Positions 389 through 63,570 of a stretch of DNA of 64,000 bases are shown piece after piece; the first letter of the stretch is position 1, and every line of letters starts with the position of its first letter. The stretch is from the IMG/VR virus record IMGVR_UViG_2799113057_000001; one strand, given 5' to 3'. The translations under genes and the position numbers were made by a program. Under the pieces are notes generated by a model. That model did no database searches. It was given only the letters and a program-made list of their open reading frames with translations, and was not told the DNA's origin. The DNA is from a virus. Its lineage: Duplodnaviria > Heunggongvirae > Uroviricota > Caudoviricetes.

Positions 389-410
389 AATTCTCTAATG
401 CGGAGAATAT
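389..410. promoter_or_regulatory. Operator-like palindrome copy 1 (TTCTCTAATGCGGAGAAT)
   Basis: Inverted repeat TTCTC-N8-GAGAA matching the 8-copy consensus. Lies 20 bp upstream of the XRE gene start. Confidence 0.6.
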
Positions 411-544
411 CCCCTGGTAGCGCGCTAGCCAAGGGAACCACGCCAGGGACGTGACAACATCGTGATGTCTCTTGCTGTTAATCGCACCTGGAGCAGCGAG
501 GCCGCAGCTAGGTCAATTCGCAGCAGATGCTGTGCCCAGGAGCT

Positions 545-757
545 ATGTCTGACCATGCAGAAGCGACCGGGCCTGGGGTCTACCCCCAGACGCCGGTCGC
601 TGTGTGTGCCTACTTTGACGAGCGCCGCTGTTCGGCGGTGTATGTCGGCATCGACGCGGTCAGATCGGTAGACCGCGCCGATCGATATGACACGACATTC
701 TGCGAGGTGACAGTCATCGCCTGCCCCACGTTGGCCCCGGCGAAATCGAGTGAGTAG
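545..757 (+). CDS. hypothetical small protein (questionable)
   Basis: Divergent from XRE paralog 1 across operator copy 1, but overlaps the vWA C-terminus antisense. Only one of the two can be fully correct. Confidence 0.25.
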   Translation: MSDHAEATGPGVYPQTPVAVCAYFDERRCSAVYVGIDAVRSVDRADRYDTTFCEVTVIACPTLAPAKSSE

Positions 758-1248
758 TCACCAGACACGCCAAGCTTGGCGCCCTCCTCGATCGCGTCCT
801 GGTTGGCTCCCATGTACAAGAACTGCCAGCCGTACTGCTCGGTCTGCTGCTGAACCAGCTTCTTGATCATGGGGTGCGTCCACTCGCGACTTGCGTTCTC
901 CAGCCCGTCGGTCATGATCGCCACGATCACTGTGCCCGGACGCTCTGCTTCGGGCAGCTCTGCGAGCTGAAGCCCAGATTCCACAATCAGGTTGGCCATC
1001 GAGTCGAGCAGAGCCGTGCTGTTGCGCGGTACCAGCGTCAGCGGCGGAACCTCATCGAGTGGCCTTTGGGAATAGACAACCTCGTATTCGGTATCGAACT
1101 GGGCCAGTGTCACCGCGCACTGGCCGGGCGCCTTGCGCTGCTCGGTGATAAAGGCATCGAAACCCTCTTCGGTGGCCTTCTTGATCTGCCTCATCGATCC
1201 GGAACGGTCGAGCAGGAACAGAATCCAGGTGAGGTTAGGGTTTGTCAT
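610..1248 (-). CDS. von Willebrand factor type A (vWA) domain protein
   Basis: MIDAS motif DRSGSM near the N-terminus, followed by a vWA-like alpha/beta region. ATGA overlap with the upstream gene. Confidence 0.75.
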   Translation of the reverse strand: MTNPNLTWILFLLDRSGSMRQIKKATEEGFDAFITEQRKAPGQCAVTLAQFDTEYEVVYSQRPLDEVPPLTLVPRNSTALLDSMANLIVESGLQLAELPEAERPGTVIVAIMTDGLENASREWTHPMIKKLVQQQTEQYGWQFLYMGANQDAIEEGAKLGVSGDYSLDFAGANVGQAMTVTSQNVVSYRSARSTDLTASMPTYTAEQRRSSK

Positions 1249-1637
1249 TTCGTCTCCTTGGGTTGAGTGTTGTTGCGGCGTGGTTTGAATCGCAGTGGTT
1301 CGGGCTGCTCCGCTGGTGTCGGCGCGGGGATTCCGGCCTCGCGGTCGTAGCGGGCCCGGTTGATCTCCGACGCGGTGACCCGCCCGTCACCGCGTGCGTA
1401 GGGATTCAGTTGCGGGGTTCGCGCCAGCCGCGGTCCCACCGAGTTCTCGGTCAGCCCGACCTGGGCGCCGGCAGCGCGAATGCTGAGTTCCCCTTCAATG
1501 ACAGCTTCGGCCATGTGCTCGTCGATCAGTTGGCTCGCCAAATCGACCGCAACGCGAAGATGCGGCAGAGATCCGGCAGCGGTGGCGCTTTCGGCCTGGC
1601 GCAGCTCCTCGCGAATCTGGTCGTATCTGTCATCCAT
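1245..1637 (-). CDS. hypothetical protein, translationally coupled to the vWA gene
   Basis: Internal Met (MDDRYDQIREELRQ...) of the longer Arg-rich ORF 1245..1934. Stop/start ATGA overlap with the vWA gene. Confidence 0.45.
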   Translation of the reverse strand: MDDRYDQIREELRQAESATAAGSLPHLRVAVDLASQLIDEHMAEAVIEGELSIRAAGAQVGLTENSVGPRLARTPQLNPYARGDGRVTASEINRARYDREAGIPAPTPAEQPEPLRFKPRRNNTQPKETK

Positions 1638-1684
1638 AGCGATACAATACCGCAGAAATTGCGGATTCGCAGAAAGTGCGGGGT

Positions 1685-61015: not shown

Positions 61016-61092
61016 TCGGTCTGCCGCGGCGATCCGCCACGCCGAAAGTCGATGACGCGCAATTTGCCACGGTTCCGTGTTGAGCTTGATGT

Positions 61093-61890
61093 ATGGACAT
61101 CGCACCGGGTCGGCGCGCCGACGTACACATGTGGGTGACTAGCCATCAATACGGCAGCGGCACTGCGCGTATTCAGACATTCCGCGATCGGGAAGGGCGC
61201 GACATCGCGTTGATCACGCTCCGCGATGGGGATGTCGATCCGGGCCCCCACTTGGCAGCCGTGGAGTACCAGAGATGCGCTTGGCACGACTTCTTCCCTG
61301 AGTCGCCTCGGCCACCGATCCTGATCTTCAACCTGCTGGGTTCGAAGGCCGCGTTCGATGCGGAACGGGAAGTAATCATCACTGAGTTCGACACTGACGG
61401 AAGGTATCTGGGCCTCACCGATATTTCCCAGCATGACCTCATCGTGCTGAATCAGCTCGGAGCCGAATGGGATGAAGGCACTGGCTTTGTTCCGTTGCAA
61501 TATCCGCCAGTCACGCACTTGGAGGTTCTTCGGCAGGTTGCTGTGTGTGAACTCCCGGAGGGCGATCTGTTCCGCGATATGAACGAGTTTATGACCGTTG
61601 ACTGGGCCGCTGCAGTGTCCGTGGCTGTGGAGTGCCTGTCGTCCGGATCGAAGTTCCCGCCCGACCTTCCGACACATGTTCCGCGCGACCTCGCGAAAGC
61701 CGCACAGTCATTTTGGCGCAAGCCCATCCGACTCATTGTCGAGCCGGGTGAGCCGCCACGCTTTGGCAACGGACAACACAGGGCTGAAGCTCTGCGCCGA
61801 CAGAACGCCACGGTCGCGATCATGCTGGACACACGGCTGGTCGACTCCGAACCACTTTCCGGCGAGATCAGGATCGTCAAGGAGCTTTAA
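61093..61890 (+). CDS. hypothetical protein with a ParB/Srx-like GxGxHR motif
   Basis: C-terminal PPRFGNGQHRAEALRR. Confidence 0.4.
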   Translation: MDIAPGRRADVHMWVTSHQYGSGTARIQTFRDREGRDIALITLRDGDVDPGPHLAAVEYQRCAWHDFFPESPRPPILIFNLLGSKAAFDAEREVIITEFDTDGRYLGLTDISQHDLIVLNQLGAEWDEGTGFVPLQYPPVTHLEVLRQVAVCELPEGDLFRDMNEFMTVDWAAAVSVAVECLSSGSKFPPDLPTHVPRDLAKAAQSFWRKPIRLIVEPGEPPRFGNGQHRAEALRRQNATVAIMLDTRLVDSEPLSGEIRIVKEL

Positions 61891-61916
61891 CTCGAGGACA
61901 TGACGTCGCTCCCAGG

Positions 61917-63272
61917 TCAGTACCCCTTGTACTTGTCGGATTGCGTGTACGCGCGTAGCGGTCTCGATACACCGGTCAAGCGGCGAACCAGCAGCATCTT
62001 TCCAGAACCGTCCCAGCCTGATGGCGGAAGCTGAGCCGCATCATCGCCCATGAGCTTTACCGCGTCGTCGTGGGTTGGTTTGGAGGTCAGCAGCACCGTC
62101 GAGCACAAGTCGAGCCACCGAGATGGGAATCTCTCCTCGTTATCCAGTGTCAGGGTGATCAGCACCAGGTGGAGACCCAGTTCGCGCCCGGTGGACAGCA
62201 GTTCTGTAACCAGGGTGTGTAGCTCTTCGCGTTGTGGCGCATCGAAGTGAGCCCACAGTGCGTCGTCGAGCGCCAAGAGCTCGGGCTTGTGGAGTTTCGG
62301 ATTGGCACGGCGTATCTCTATCTCTGCGTGAACTCCCCTGATTTGGTCGAGAACCGCGTCCGGATCTTTCCGCGAATTAAGGTGTCTGGCACCCCACCAG
62401 TTAGTGGCTAGCGCGTCCCGGACCAACCCTCGCACCAGCATCGATTTACCGCGGCCTGCGCCGCCGAGTACCAGCAAGTGGCCATCTGCGGCGGGGCTGT
62501 AGGTGACTGGCCCACCGGTAGCACCCACCCCGAGTGGAAACGCCGCGCGCTCGCGCGCAGTAGGGGTAGCGGTGGGCAACGGATGCGGTGAAGGTGGCGA
62601 GAGAAGTTTCATCTCGCGTTCCAACTGGACCGCGATGCTGATGTGGGTTTCGTTGGTCTGCTCGGGGTGGTTGTGATTCCCGCGGCAGGTGTCCGGGTCG
62701 CCGAGCGCGTCAACGAAGAAATGGTTGGGCTTCGACGGGTCGTATTCGGCCGCGGTTGACTTCGTTGTTGCAGTGGAGGGCACCTGCATCTGGCCGTTGC
62801 CAACATAGAGTCCGTGGCCACCGCCCAGGACCGTGACGATGTCGCCCGGCTTCGCCTCGGCTGGAGAAACAGGGGCGAGTGATCCAGGCACGTCTTTAAC
62901 GTTCCGAAAGAATGCTGCGCCGGCGGGGACCGGTATGCAGTGGCGATTGAACTCGCGTTGCCTGGTGGCCCAATCTCCCAAAGGATCTGGCAGCGGCCGC
63001 GGTGCAGGTTGAGATACCGTGCCCAGAACTTCAGCACCGAAGACATCCCGATGCGGGATCGCTGCTTGCGCGAACTCGTCCAGTACGAGCCGGACGGGGC
63101 CATCACTGTCGGTGTCGTTTGGCAGGAACCGCAACGGCTTGGCACCGAACACGCTTTCCGGAGCATCGATAACGGCACGAGCGAAAACACGGGCGTTGTG
63201 CAGCGTGAAATCCAGCCGAGCACGCATGAGCGCCTTGGCCAACATTTCGGTGCGATTGGTGGCAGATGCCAT
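61917..63272 (-). CDS. NlpC/P60-like peptidase domain fused to a P-loop NTPase
   Basis: N-terminal ...HCIPVP...PGDIVTVLGGGHGLYVGNGQM (NlpC/P60 pattern). C-terminal Walker A VLGGAGRGKS. Confidence 0.5.
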   Translation of the reverse strand: MASATNRTEMLAKALMRARLDFTLHNARVFARAVIDAPESVFGAKPLRFLPNDTDSDGPVRLVLDEFAQAAIPHRDVFGAEVLGTVSQPAPRPLPDPLGDWATRQREFNRHCIPVPAGAAFFRNVKDVPGSLAPVSPAEAKPGDIVTVLGGGHGLYVGNGQMQVPSTATTKSTAAEYDPSKPNHFFVDALGDPDTCRGNHNHPEQTNETHISIAVQLEREMKLLSPPSPHPLPTATPTARERAAFPLGVGATGGPVTYSPAADGHLLVLGGAGRGKSMLVRGLVRDALATNWWGARHLNSRKDPDAVLDQIRGVHAEIEIRRANPKLHKPELLALDDALWAHFDAPQREELHTLVTELLSTGRELGLHLVLITLTLDNEERFPSRWLDLCSTVLLTSKPTHDDAVKLMGDDAAQLPPSGWDGSGKMLLVRRLTGVSRPLRAYTQSDKYKGY

Positions 63273-63550
63273 GAGAGGAGACCTCCCTTTCCGTCGAGCG
63301 GTGCGTCCCCGGCCCGCGCCCGCCACGAAAAGGGGAGAGCTGCGTAGAACGCGACCTTCACGAGGTTCTTCGGCCCTTGCGGAGTCTCGTCAGCCGCCGC
63401 CGGGGAGCGGAGCTGGTCGAGAGTCCAGGCGCGGGAGCAGTTCTGGCCCCGTTGGGAAGGTACTTCCAAATTGCGATCGGACCTAATCGGATGAACTGAC
63501 GACTCTCGGCGTGTCGCGAGCCGCTGGACGGCTTGTCACCCCAACCATCT

Positions 63551-63570
63551 ATTCTCTAAAATAGAGAAAT
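63551..63570. promoter_or_regulatory. Operator-like palindrome copy 8 (ATTCTCTAAAATAGAGAAAT)
   Basis: Consensus match 15 bp upstream of the next start. Confidence 0.6.

Follow-up and report, generated by a model that had tools for sequence, protein, structure and literature searches.

tRNA genes of the G2 array type have been described as units in mycobacteria, including M. abscessus, M. austroafricanum, M. canariasense and others, and in ca. 87% of these arrays they are accompanied by genes for an XRE regulator and an HNH protein (Morgado and Vicente 2018, PMC5966550). The stretch of DNA analysed here (64,000 nucleotides, referred to below as the window) belongs to a large integrated element from Mycobacteroides abscessus; ca. 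95 kb of the element and its surroundings were scanned. Leftward of the gene for a small regulator, XRE1, immediately 3' of it and outside the window, lie ca. 35 tRNA genes on the same strand as XRE1 (L102), together with an HNH gene. This is the same genetic object as the units described in that work: XRE1 is the "XRE regulator" of a G2 tRNA array, and the element is an island carrying that array. The word "promoter" does not occur in the main text of PMC5966550, and the passages of it considered here contain no operator and no wider island (EccB/EccC, DNA polymerase, WhiA, SPFH). With respect to those passages, the palindrome and the regulon reading presented below are additions to the published description of G2 arrays.

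The window encodes two small HTH regulators:

93-368, minus strand: XRE1, 91-aa HTH regulator (Pfam HTH_31, 29 bits versus a cut-off of 27)
3536-3838, minus strand: XRE2, 100-aa HTH regulator (Pfam HTH_31, 38.7 bits; HTH_3, 34.9 bits)

Both proteins pass the Pfam cut-off for HTH_31, and XRE2 also that for HTH_3. They are 45% identical over 65 aa (E 5e-18), which makes them paralogs, as an earlier note on this DNA had stated. Small HTH proteins of the same superfamily include the CI and Cro proteins of phages lambda, 434 and P22 and the P22 C2 repressor; P22 C2 and the 434 repressor were among the PDB sequence hits of the XRE proteins. The temperate-phage systems resemble the arrangement proposed here in that palindromic operators overlie core promoters, the regulator's own promoter included, and in that two regulators apparently use one operator sequence. 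They differ in having clustered tripartite OL/OR operators, whereas the present candidate operators are single and dispersed over 8-18 promoters and 60-140 kb. XRE1 and XRE2, moreover, are close paralogs that share their recognition helix, and the element, as judged from sequence comparison, is not recognisable as a phage: it had no DNA match among 50,697 phage records, no close relatives of XRE1 or XRE2 were found in IMG/VR, and its large proteins gave few PHROG hits. The "lysogeny/immunity repressor" of the earlier note, which presumes a prophage, is not supported by these results.

Two motif systems of mycobacteriophages are also comparable. Stoperators, which are bound by L5 gp71 in cluster A phages, are asymmetric and 13 bp long; they are oriented with transcription and block elongation. 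As with the sites described here, many copies of one repressor site are scattered over a mobile mycobacterial genome in its short intergenic regions, and much of the genome is placed under one repressor, as would be the case here; the present site, however, is a 19-bp dyad placed over the promoter. In cluster K phages, start-associated sequences are likewise 13 bp long and asymmetric, contain the ribosome-binding site and lie a few bases from the start codon. They share with our motif a conserved position right before the start codons of a subset of genes, but our motif is palindromic, is followed by the Shine-Dalgarno (SD) sequence and, in the window, ends 12-56 nt from the start.

Among bacterial regulators, the C proteins C.BclI and C.AhdI were among the best PDB sequence matches. 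C proteins are XRE-family proteins of ca. 75-100 aa whose own gene is preceded directly by a palindromic box that overlaps its promoter, as is proposed here. They control only their own restriction-modification operon, in contrast to the multi-operon regulon that we propose, and no restriction or modification genes were found next to XRE1 or XRE2 by Pfam search or in public gene calls. ClgR, which is chromosomal, activates clp and lon genes and has a GC-rich site. It was the best PDB sequence match (5woq, E 3e-6). It too is an XRE-family regulator from Actinobacteria and has a palindromic site in front of several operons, but the similarity is confined to the generic HTH fold.

The palindrome and its distribution

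The window contains exactly eight copies of ATTCTCTA-WWW-TAGAGAAT, and a search allowing up to three mismatches matched these eight loci only; the chance expectation, from 100 dinucleotide shuffles of the window, was 0.00 copies. The symmetric unit is 8-3-8 (ATTCTCTA WWW TAGAGAAT), with a 19-bp consensus of T-ATTCTCTA-WWW-TAGAGAAT. Scored with a symmetrised weight matrix built from 24 sites, the eight copies reached 25.8-35.6 bits, versus 10.2 bits for the next best window position and 16.6 bits for the best score in 20 shuffles. All eight fall inside the 10.5% of the window that is non-coding by gene calls (chance ca. 1.5e-8; site 7 was counted as intergenic using the start codon kept between strains). 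All 18 copies in a Tsukamurella relative are likewise inside RefSeq-annotated intergenic gaps. The copies are:

390-408, minus strand: site 1, putative operator/promoter of XRE1 (26.4 bits; sense strand ATTCTCCGCATTAGAGAAT; 21 nt before the XRE1 start codon)
2828-2846, minus strand: site 2 (32.2 bits; sense strand ATTCTCTAAAATAGAGAAC; 14 nt before ATG 2813, SD GAGGTGG)
3867-3885, minus strand: site 3, between XRE2 and eccB (25.8 bits; XRE2 sense strand ATTCTCCGTTTTAGAGAAC)
19330-19348, plus strand: site 4 (26.8 bits; ATTCTCCGTTTTAGAGAAA; 18 nt before ATG 19367, SD GGTGG)
27033-27051, minus strand: site 5 (35.6 bits; sense strand ATTCTCTATTTTAGAGAAT; 16 nt before ATG 27016)
55738-55756, plus strand: site 6 (27.8 bits; CTTCTCTAAAACAGAGAAT; 56 nt before the SPFH start)
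59702-59720, plus strand: site 7 (35.6 bits; ATTCTCTAAAATAGAGAAT)
63551-63569, plus strand: site 8 (33.1 bits; ATTCTCTAAAATAGAGAAA; 15 nt before ATG 63585, SD AAGGCGGGG)

The earlier note had recorded all eight, at positions 0-2 nt off, but had described three of them as perfect palindromes of 19-23 bp and the others as varying in the central 3-4 nt only. Full-length symmetry was seen at two copies, over 23 bp at site 5 and over 19 bp at site 7; at sites 2 and 8 it spans 17 bp, and the remaining copies carry changes in the arms (positions 1, 7, 13 and 19) as well as in the centre.

The palindrome was present just upstream of the XRE gene in every recovered lineage of the XRE1/XRE2 subfamily, namely three M. 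abscessus variants, Mycobacterium sp. D16Q14, Mycolicibacterium austroafricanum and canariasense, Tsukamurella (L143) and five metagenomic contigs (the arrangement is seen in L110, L114, L115, L116/L117, L156, L157, L159 and L160). The recovered stretch of L110 contains XRE2-type genes only and that of L116/L117 XRE1-type genes only, and the motif accompanies both kinds. The subclass of site found at XRE1 (centre RCATT) is kept in L108, L112, L114, L115, L116, L159 and L160. More distantly related XRE proteins (Bacteroidales, Bacillota and Pseudonocardiaceae) lacked the arrangement. The Tsukamurella relative is syntenic with the window, and 17 of its copies have at most one mismatch and one has two; site positions between eccB and XRE2, after whiA (L144 28970) and before SPFH (L145 36062) are kept. 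In an alignment of the XRE2-eccB intergenic region from seven lineages, the invariant non-coding columns were almost all those of the motif (TA.TCTC....AGAGA). At site 7, aligned among four M. abscessus strains, the motif is invariant and the flanking intergenic bases vary; the TTG, the TANNNT pattern and the second ATG are retained.

Promoter features and downstream units

When 34 sites from all lineages were oriented by their downstream gene, a TANNNT hexamer with T at -1 was found in the sense direction at 27 sites versus 11 in antisense, and a TTG at 16-18 nt spacing at 16 versus two (chance expectation ca. 5% per register, roughly 10% for either). The start codon follows the motif by 0-28 nt at 20 of the 34 sites, mostly by 12-28 nt; the distance is at most 58 nt at 30 sites and larger at the other four. 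An independent promoter scan over 12.9 kb gave three hits, all on motif sites and in the sense direction. Because such directional features are present, the sites do, on promoter prediction, head transcription units. The units and genes next to the window sites are:

610-2819, minus strand: five-gene operon 3' of site 2 (120, 85, 172, 130 and 212 aa), function unknown (own and public gene calls)
4038-10066, plus strand: eccB-like (576 aa) and eccC-like (1425 aa) genes, divergent from XRE2, neighbours of site 3 (Pfam)
19367-22938, plus strand: co-oriented gene run 3' of site 4 (gene calls)
22944-27016, minus strand: co-oriented run 3' of site 5, with DUF7457 (26174-27016), DUF2786/DUF7168, DUF4926 and unknowns (gene calls, Pfam)
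27073-28026, minus strand: whiA homolog (Pfam HTH_WhiA, LAGLIDADG_WhiA, WhiA_N)
55813-58214, plus strand: SPFH/Band 7 operon 3' of site 6 (Pfam Band_7, E 1e-21)
59733-61890, plus strand: three-gene operon 3' of site 7, function unknown (gene calls)
63585-64000, plus strand: small genes 3' of site 8 (60 and 78 aa), the second reaching the window edge (gene calls)

In the sense direction, site 1 contains TTGGCT-17-TATTCT, and at site 2 the scan found ATGTCA-18-TAAAAT, the sole promoter-like match in 1-4200; a Pfam search of the five-gene operon that follows revealed no significant family. Site 4 has TTGTCC-17-TATTCT in the plus direction. The run behind it encodes small membrane proteins (ca. 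two, four and one predicted TM segments) and a SLOG/YAcAr protein, and may be more than one operon, since gaps of 112-319 nt separate some of its genes. Site 5 has TAGACC-17-(TG)TATTCT, and the run downstream has internal gaps of 96 and 179 nt. Site 6 fills the spacer of TTGACT-16-TACGAT and is matched by the promoter scan. A TATTCT is also present on its antisense strand, facing an FtsK/AAA gene (53475-55475). At site 7 the palindrome occupies the spacer of TTGCAA-17-TATGGT; transcription is predicted to start at the conserved ATG 59733, and the mRNA would therefore be leaderless if that start holds. At site 8 the promoter scan gave TTGTCA-18-TAAAAT, with 10 of 12 positions matching.

The earlier note had placed every copy at an operon head and had suggested that the ESX-like genes, the membrane-protein cluster, the whiA cassette and the SPFH operon are under one regulator. 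Intergenic position and directional promoter features agree with the first proposal, but no copy is present in 29 of the 37 intergenic gaps that measure 30 nt or more, or in three of the six divergent gaps, among the latter the heads of the NAMPT-containing and DNA polymerase I-containing operons; the palindrome therefore marks some operon heads but not others. As for the second, sites do head the membrane-protein cluster and the SPFH operon. The whiA gene does not belong with them: site 5 starts 21 nt after the stop codon of whiA, which is upstream of the site and outside the DUF7457 unit that it heads. Control of the ESX-like genes (T7SS_ESX1_EccB, E 9e-94; FtsK_SpoIIIE, E 1e-49) by site 3 is also unsupported, because the site is 152 nt from the eccB start, versus 28 nt from that of XRE2, and shows neither TANNNT nor TTG toward eccB; its T at -1 is toward XRE2.

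A candidate operator and its rivals

We consider that the palindrome is probably a shared operator of the paralogous XRE1 and XRE2, overlapping SigA-type core promoters and including autoregulation. In most copies the upstream arm and the preceding T would form the -10 hexamer (TATTCT), in some the A/T centre would do so (TAAAAT), and at sites 6 and 7 the palindrome would occupy the -35/-10 spacer. The need for three registers, and the lack of a good central -10 at several XRE-proximal sites, speak against the reading. Because each palindrome overlaps a promoter core, a bound XRE dimer would block RNA polymerase. Eight window operons would be repressed in this way: those of both XRE genes, the membrane-protein cluster, the DUF7457 and SPFH operons and the three operons without assigned function. 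The adjacent array of ca. 35 tRNA genes may be repressed too, through a weaker ninth copy immediately beyond the left edge. Co-occurrence with the palindrome points to XRE1 and XRE2 as the binders, and site position to repression rather than activation; the sites are 21-28 nt upstream of the start codon at both genes. The presence of the palindrome upstream of XRE genes in all recovered lineages thus favours the core idea of the earlier note, an XRE operator set with autoregulation. The recognition-helix stretch V-x-SRIERGERPCRV-x-E is invariant in XRE1, XRE2 and the recovered relatives, but the SRIERG signature is common across XRE proteins generally, and helix invariance alone is weak evidence.

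The palindrome could instead be a plain conserved promoter of the element, perhaps bidirectional, with an A/T-rich centre and arms that supply -10 hexamers to host RNA polymerase and no dedicated repressor. The directional TANNNT and TTG features and the coincidence of promoter-scan hits with sites agree with this, as does a Tsukamurella copy that ends 4 nt before a tmRNA gene and is traversed by TTGCGC-17-TAAAGT. We nevertheless regard it as unlikely. A promoter has no need of dyad symmetry, yet the downstream arm (TAGAGA) is conserved like the upstream one even at sites without a divergent gene, and the orientation of asymmetric centres is independent of gene direction, which fits the site of a dimeric protein better than a signal with direction alone. 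One invariant palindrome shared by three promoter registers is what would be expected of an operator superimposed on promoters. The reading would also leave unexplained why the motif co-occurs strictly with one XRE subfamily.

An operator for another regulator is a similarly improbable reading. The element does encode further DNA-binding proteins (WhiA, a 211-aa HTH protein beyond the tRNA array and an HTH_17 protein), a host factor might also serve, and XRE binding itself is something we infer. However, relatives of 1.4-4.4 kb (L156, L157 and L160) keep the motif paired with the XRE gene, the 57 kb of chromosome flanking the Tsukamurella element has no copy, and the hosts belong to several genera. 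The known WhiA sites of Streptomyces are short and non-palindromic, which counts against WhiA as the binder.

Action as an RNA hairpin, at the 5' end of a transcript or the end of the upstream gene (stabiliser, processing site or terminator), seems very unlikely. Perfect copies can fold into a stem of 8 bp and a loop of 3 nt (-5.9 kcal/mol, z -4.1), but imperfect ones fold weakly (-2.9 to -4.8 kcal/mol), and the changes in their arms (C at position 7 and G at position 13) disrupt pairing without compensation. There is no U-tract, no terminator-like hit on any site and no Rfam match in the window; centre orientation relative to the gene is mixed, and most transcripts would carry only half of the palindrome if the predicted starts hold. 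That the copies have no role in regulation, and are remnants or junctions of a small mobile repeat or hot spots of recombination where modules meet, is barely credible: gene content 3' of site 7 does vary between strains, but site 7 is not a breakpoint, because homology continues on both its sides in the strains compared, the flanks of the 19-mer are unrelated between sites with no extended repeat around it, and the fixed relation to start codons and XRE genes across genera indicates function.

Two minor observations concern XRE2. The next gene on its strand, overlapping it by 8 nt, encodes an NT5C-type nucleotidase (2917-3543), and the exact XRE2 protein was found in 133 index blocks of the assembly collection.

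Copies and placement of the palindrome

A search of the window with ATTCTCTAAAAYRGAGAAT, allowing up to three mismatches, located the 19-bp palindrome at eight loci only (sites 1-8, listed below); no matches were expected, as judged from 100 dinucleotide-preserving shuffles of the window. The symmetric unit is ATTCTCTA-WWW-TAGAGAAT, an 8-3-8 dyad. When scored with a symmetrised weight matrix made from 24 sites of the window and its relatives, the eight sites reached 25.8-35.6 bits, compared to 10.2 bits for the runner-up position in 64 kb and 16.6 bits for the top of 20 shuffles. 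Given this gap between sites and background, we conclude that the copy number is exactly eight, as counted in the earlier note. Sites 1 and 3 lie 21-28 nt upstream of the genes for the two small paralogous HTH regulators of the island, XRE1 (93-368, minus strand) and XRE2 (3536-3838, minus strand).

Motif sites in the window and the units they head, assigned by orientation
390, site 1: XRE1
2828, site 2: five-gene operon of unknown function, from 2819 down to 610
3867, site 3: XRE2, then an NT5C-type gene on the same strand
19330, site 4: cluster that includes small membrane proteins, from 19367
27033, site 5: DUF7457 operon, from 27016
55738, site 6: SPFH operon, from 55813; possibly also the divergent FtsK/AAA gene
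59702, site 7: three-gene operon, from 59733, of strain-dependent content
63551, site 8: small genes, from 63585

Genes were called with a codon-usage model trained on long ORFs of the window. By these calls, 10.5% of the window is non-coding, and this fraction contains all eight sites (chance ca. 1.5e-8). The comparison with coding regions that the earlier note had proposed thus gave a strictly intergenic placement, 8/8 in the window and 18/18 in the Tsukamurella element described below. The same note saw in the motif a mark of the heads of transcription units; this holds for the eight units listed, but the motif is missing from 29 of the 37 gaps that measure 30 nt or more, and from three of the six divergent gaps (11709-12281, 36191-37165 and 46435-46811), in which a search for repeats revealed short, weak ones only. 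Operons with the NAMPT and DNA polymerase genes have no motif at their heads.

There is one site per intergenic region, and the closest neighbouring sites are ca. 1 kb apart. No further copies were found in the 10 kb to the right of the window, or in the 10-17 kb to the left of the tRNA array that adjoins it (the element boundary lies still further left). A scan of IMG/VR for the exact motif returned 91 contigs. The 80 contigs listed have one match each, which are chance occurrences in unrelated contigs, and there is no multi-copy relative among them. A literature search with the motif sequence produced unrelated eukaryotic and primer matches only, and no earlier description of the motif was found in the searchable literature.

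Candidate regulators and overlap with promoters

XRE2 belongs to the XRE family according to Pfam (HTH_31, 38.7 bits with a cut-off of 27; HTH_3, 34.9 bits with a cut-off of 23). XRE1 passes the cut-off for HTH_31 with 29 bits, and is under the cut-off for HTH_3 with 17.8 bits. The two proteins are paralogs (45% identity over 65 aa) and share with their relatives an invariant stretch in the recognition-helix region, V-x-SRIERGERPCRV-x-E. In the PDB, the XRE family profile matches ClgR, C.BclI, DdrO, and P22 C2, the nearest structures being generic XRE proteins. Two members of the subfamily per element are usual.

XRE2 homologs with 74-79% identity are encoded in variant M. abscessus islands, where the same three left-hand sites are kept. 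In all more distant relatives of the subfamily (listed below), the palindrome is located immediately upstream of the XRE gene, at 17-28 nt from the start codon in most of them, and at a greater distance in L115/L158, L157, L159, and L160. XRE proteins of Bacteroidales, Bacillota, and Pseudonocardiaceae that have the generic SRIERG signature alone have no such upstream site. In alignments of four strains around site 7 and of seven lineages across the XRE2-eccB gap, the motif columns are invariant and the neighbouring intergenic bases variable.

More distant relatives (identity of the XRE protein where available)
L110: metagenomic contig, 49%
L114: Mycobacterium sp. D16Q14, 55%
L115: contig binned as Leucobacter, 44%
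L116, L117: Mycolicibacterium austroafricanum, M. canariasense, 38-39%
L156, L157, L159, L160: four more metagenomic contigs

The recovered stretch of L110 contains XRE2-type genes only, those of L116 and L117 XRE1-type genes only, and the motif is present in both cases, which fits with one sequence that would be read by both paralogs. The own sites of XRE1-type genes form a subclass in all lineages (window 390-408; L114 11914; L115 5253; L116 9974; L159 1865; L160 1572), with RCATT at the centre in place of an A-tract, C at position 7, and G at position 13; they tend to TCTCC-N5-GGAGA. This subclass could allow the two paralogs, both predicted to bind, to discriminate between sites.

For the analysis of promoter features, 34 sites were oriented by the nearest downstream gene. 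A T in front of the motif creates TANTCT, which conforms to the actinobacterial -10 pattern TANNNT, at 27 of 34 sites in the sense versus 11 of 34 in the antisense direction. A TTG is present 16-18 nt upstream of the -10 candidate at 16/34 sense versus 2/34 antisense sites (the chance level is ca. 5% per register, and ca. 10% for either). A start codon follows 0-28 nt past the motif at 20/34 sites, usually with a Shine-Dalgarno sequence between the two. An independent consensus promoter scan of 12.9 kb gave three matches, each on a site and in its sense orientation (2828, 55738, and 63551), and at 55738 (TTGACT-16-TACGAT) and 59702 (TTGCAA-17-TATGGT) the palindrome occupies the -35/-10 spacer. 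The TTG, the TANNNT pattern, and the second ATG (59733) at 59702 withstand between-strain substitutions, which predicts a leaderless transcript. From the promoter features and the start codon spacing we therefore conclude that the site overlaps the predicted core promoter, which is where repressor operators classically lie. Both XRE genes have such features overlapping their own sites and, at the level of sequence, the autoregulation proposed in the earlier note is supported. A single fixed -10 register was rejected: the central hexamer conforms to TANNNT at only 23/34 sites, and equally often in antisense, and three registers are needed.

Dyad symmetry is retained at sites with a gene on one side only, and the asymmetric centre is oriented without regard to gene direction. 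These properties point to recognition by a dimeric DNA-binding protein, not to a directional signal. We consider it probable that the motif serves the XRE pair as an operator that overlaps promoters. XRE1 and XRE2 would bind the palindrome over core promoters and repress, as suggested by the co-occurrence of gene and palindrome and by the position of the sites. There are two main rivals to this proposal. Overlap with -35 and -10 features is also to be expected of a promoter element that works independently of any repressor; the symmetry and the mixed centre orientation argue against a directional signal of this kind. The palindrome may also be an operator for another regulator; the presence of the palindrome at XRE genes throughout the subfamily speaks for the XRE pair. 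Action of the palindrome as RNA, to which its self-complementary arms might lend themselves, is unlikely, since the hairpins are weak (A/U-rich stem, -2.9 to -5.9 kcal/mol), arm variants disrupt pairs without compensation, a U-tract is lacking, no terminator-like match falls on any site, and no Rfam family is found in the window. A ribosome-binding site was rejected as well: GGAGAA has no start codon at the proper distance, and separate Shine-Dalgarno sequences lie downstream.

Among known systems, the XRE repressor-operator systems of phages and ICEs are similar to the proposed mechanism. As in the CI-Cro type, operators are located over promoters, including the repressor's own, as far as can be read from the DNA; unlike in that type, they are single, with no adjacent clusters between divergent repressor and lytic genes. 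The stoperators of cluster A mycobacteriophages are 13-bp asymmetric sites oriented with transcription. The motif resembles them in its dispersal through a mobile genome, but is an 8-3-8 dyad whose centre is in mixed orientation to the genes. Cluster K start-associated sequences are asymmetric and include a ribosome-binding site a few bases from the start codon, whereas the motif is palindromic, with the Shine-Dalgarno sequence downstream of it and the start codon 12-56 nt away in the window. Restriction-modification controller (C) proteins are mechanistically similar, being small XRE proteins with a palindromic box upstream of their own gene, but the neighbours of the XRE genes here are NT5C, eccB, genes of unknown function, and the tRNA array, with no restriction-modification genes. 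Intrinsic terminators and structured RNAs have a G+C-rich stem with a U-run or an Rfam match, and the motif has neither. The defining features of stoperators, cluster K sequences, terminators, and C-box systems are thus absent from the motif. The motif and the island regulon would be a new example of the known XRE repressor-operator type, which leaves general principles of gene regulation unchanged.

Proposed regulon units and the tRNA array

The earlier note placed several modules under one regulator. The SPFH operon and the membrane-protein cluster, headed by sites 6 and 4 as judged by orientation, would belong to the operator set. The whiA cassette has to be removed from it, since whiA (27073-28026) is upstream of site 5, not downstream. 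As to the ESX-like genes, site 3 is indeed located between XRE2 and eccB, but it is placed and oriented for XRE2, at a distance of 152 nt from eccB. Pfam and PHROG searches of most regulon genes revealed no informative family. A comparison of 59620-61890 with comparison loci L105, L106, and L107 showed that M. abscessus strains carry different genes after site 7 but keep the motif and the first gene's 5' end; this locus resembles a slot for variable cargo served by a constant promoter.

No tRNA genes are present in the window itself. Directly downstream of XRE1 and on the same strand, 34-36 tRNA genes are found within ca. 8.5 kb (L102-L104); the array, which contains an HNH endonuclease gene, starts ca. 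0.9 kb beyond the XRE1 stop codon. In L102 it occupies 11212-19696, immediately left of the window, and it is also present in L103, L104, L108, L112, and L114. With at least 20 densely packed tRNA genes and with XRE and HNH genes, it is a published G2 tRNA array unit. Morgado and Vicente report an XRE regulator and an HNH gene in ca. 87% of G2 arrays; the word "promoter" is absent from the main text of their paper (PMC5966550). A ninth and weaker motif copy, TATCTCTATAACCGAGAAC (17.8-20.4 bits), has been kept in three island variants. It is located between the XRE1 stop codon and the array (L102 10366-10384), 1-2 nt outside the left edge of the window, and may be the promoter/operator of the array, which would then be part of the regulon.

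The exact XRE2 protein is found in 133 index blocks of the assembly collection, complete genomes among them, and is assigned by public sources to Mycobacteroides; 315 of 362 tRNA-array genomes are reported to come from the M. abscessus complex (PMC5966550). The island is common in clinical Mycobacteroides abscessus. One 19-bp operator and two candidate regulators provide a direct experimental handle on the timing of expression of the tRNA array, of the operons for SPFH and the membrane proteins, and perhaps of EccB/EccC.

The element and its relatives

The window encodes EccB- and EccC-like proteins, several further FtsK-like ATPases, NAMPT, a PRPP-synthetase-like protein, DNA polymerase I, helicases, WhiA, and an SPFH protein. 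The right end of the element is ca. 3.7 kb beyond the window, where an HTH_17 gene is followed by chromosomal genes. The earlier description of a lysogeny/immunity-type repressor presumes a phage, which the searches do not establish. Megablast of window positions 1-20000 and 27001-52000 against 50,697 phage records found no phage DNA match, a search of IMG/VR found no close relative of the XRE proteins, and only 3 of 10 large proteins have any PHROG match, none clearly structural (the left element end is outside the DNA walked). DNA polymerase I is ca. 38% identical to actinophage polymerases. The terms EccB, EccC, palindrome, and DNA polymerase are absent from the M. abscessus prophage literature searched.

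The EccB/EccC-like pair is encoded at 3972-10066, and two more FtsK-like ATPases at 53475-55475 and 61917-63272, one of them fused to an AAA+ module (EccA-like). Pfam searches of motif-adjacent genes and larger proteins, and public gene calls of homologous loci, revealed no other T7SS families; no relaxase was seen in the element. The set is suggestive of an apparatus for FtsK-type DNA transfer or secretion instead of a full T7SS. Upstream of DNA polymerase I, a 975-bp non-coding gap (36191-37165) contains three copies of GGCGTGCACAT, several short inverted repeats, and no motif, and could be an origin or regulatory region.

Candidate anti-defence or nucleotide metabolism genes
2917-3543: NT5C-type nucleotidase
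10935-11708: GmrSD_C nuclease-like protein
13129-13611: Macro-domain protein
13672-14559: PRPP-synthetase-like protein
14912-16537: NAMPT

The PRPP-synthetase-like protein and NAMPT resemble phage NAD+ reconstitution pathways. Of the five genes, NT5C alone comes after a motif site. A speculative extension, which we consider rather improbable, is that the XRE paralogs are a CI/Cro-like switch of a large undescribed class of Mycobacteriales integrative elements, in which one operator ties cargo and anti-defence expression to the state of the element. Members of such a class would be ca. 80-140 kb or more, with EccB/EccC, several FtsK-like ATPases, their own DNA polymerase, WhiA, and NAD-salvage genes, and the coupled functions would include the tRNA array of ca. 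35 genes and, in relatives, an element-encoded tmRNA. If so, the TCTCC-N5-GGAGA subclass at XRE1 would give the paralogs differing affinities, as such a switch requires.

A relative of the island is found in Tsukamurella tyrosinosolvens (NZ_LR134455.1; L143-L146). The record is labelled as circular "plasmid 13"; a plasmid was rejected, as it carries isocitrate dehydrogenase (icd), katG, and other housekeeping genes, and it is probably a chromosome fragment with an integrated relative. A tyrosine integrase (120870-122210) marks the start of the element, which is at least 140 kb long and shows synteny with the window (SPFH, FtsK, HA-domain helicase, SLT, DNA polymerase, WhiA, EccC/EccB, and XRE genes). 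Its motif variant, ACTCTCTA-TTT-TAGAGAGT, is present in 17 copies with at most one core mismatch and one copy with two, each in an annotated intergenic gap, versus none in 57 kb of adjoining chromosome. At three positions the two elements agree: in the eccB-XRE2 gap, directly behind whiA, and ahead of the SPFH gene. The motif is a simple sequence marker for related elements in other Mycobacteriales.

The Tsukamurella element encodes its own tmRNA (L143 46227-46653; about 260.2 kb in NZ_LR134455.1), a case that is informative on promoter position because the 5' end of the product is known without any ORF call. A motif copy (L143 46204-46222) stops 4 nt short of the predicted 5' end, and TTGCGC-17-TAAAGT runs through it. 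Further genes of this element are cysS and those for two RNA ligases, a Thg1-like enzyme, methyltransferases, ParB, and mIHF. A second tmRNA gene, in L115 (9353-9775), has no recognisable motif upstream. The EccB fragment and NAMPT of L115/L158, binned as a Leucobacter MAG, are 76% and 66% identical to their M. abscessus counterparts, which indicates either a contaminated bin or an element family that crosses orders. In L110, positions ca. 1100-7000 form an inverted duplication centred on eccB, with the XRE gene and the flank each present twice in identical form, which may be an assembly artefact.
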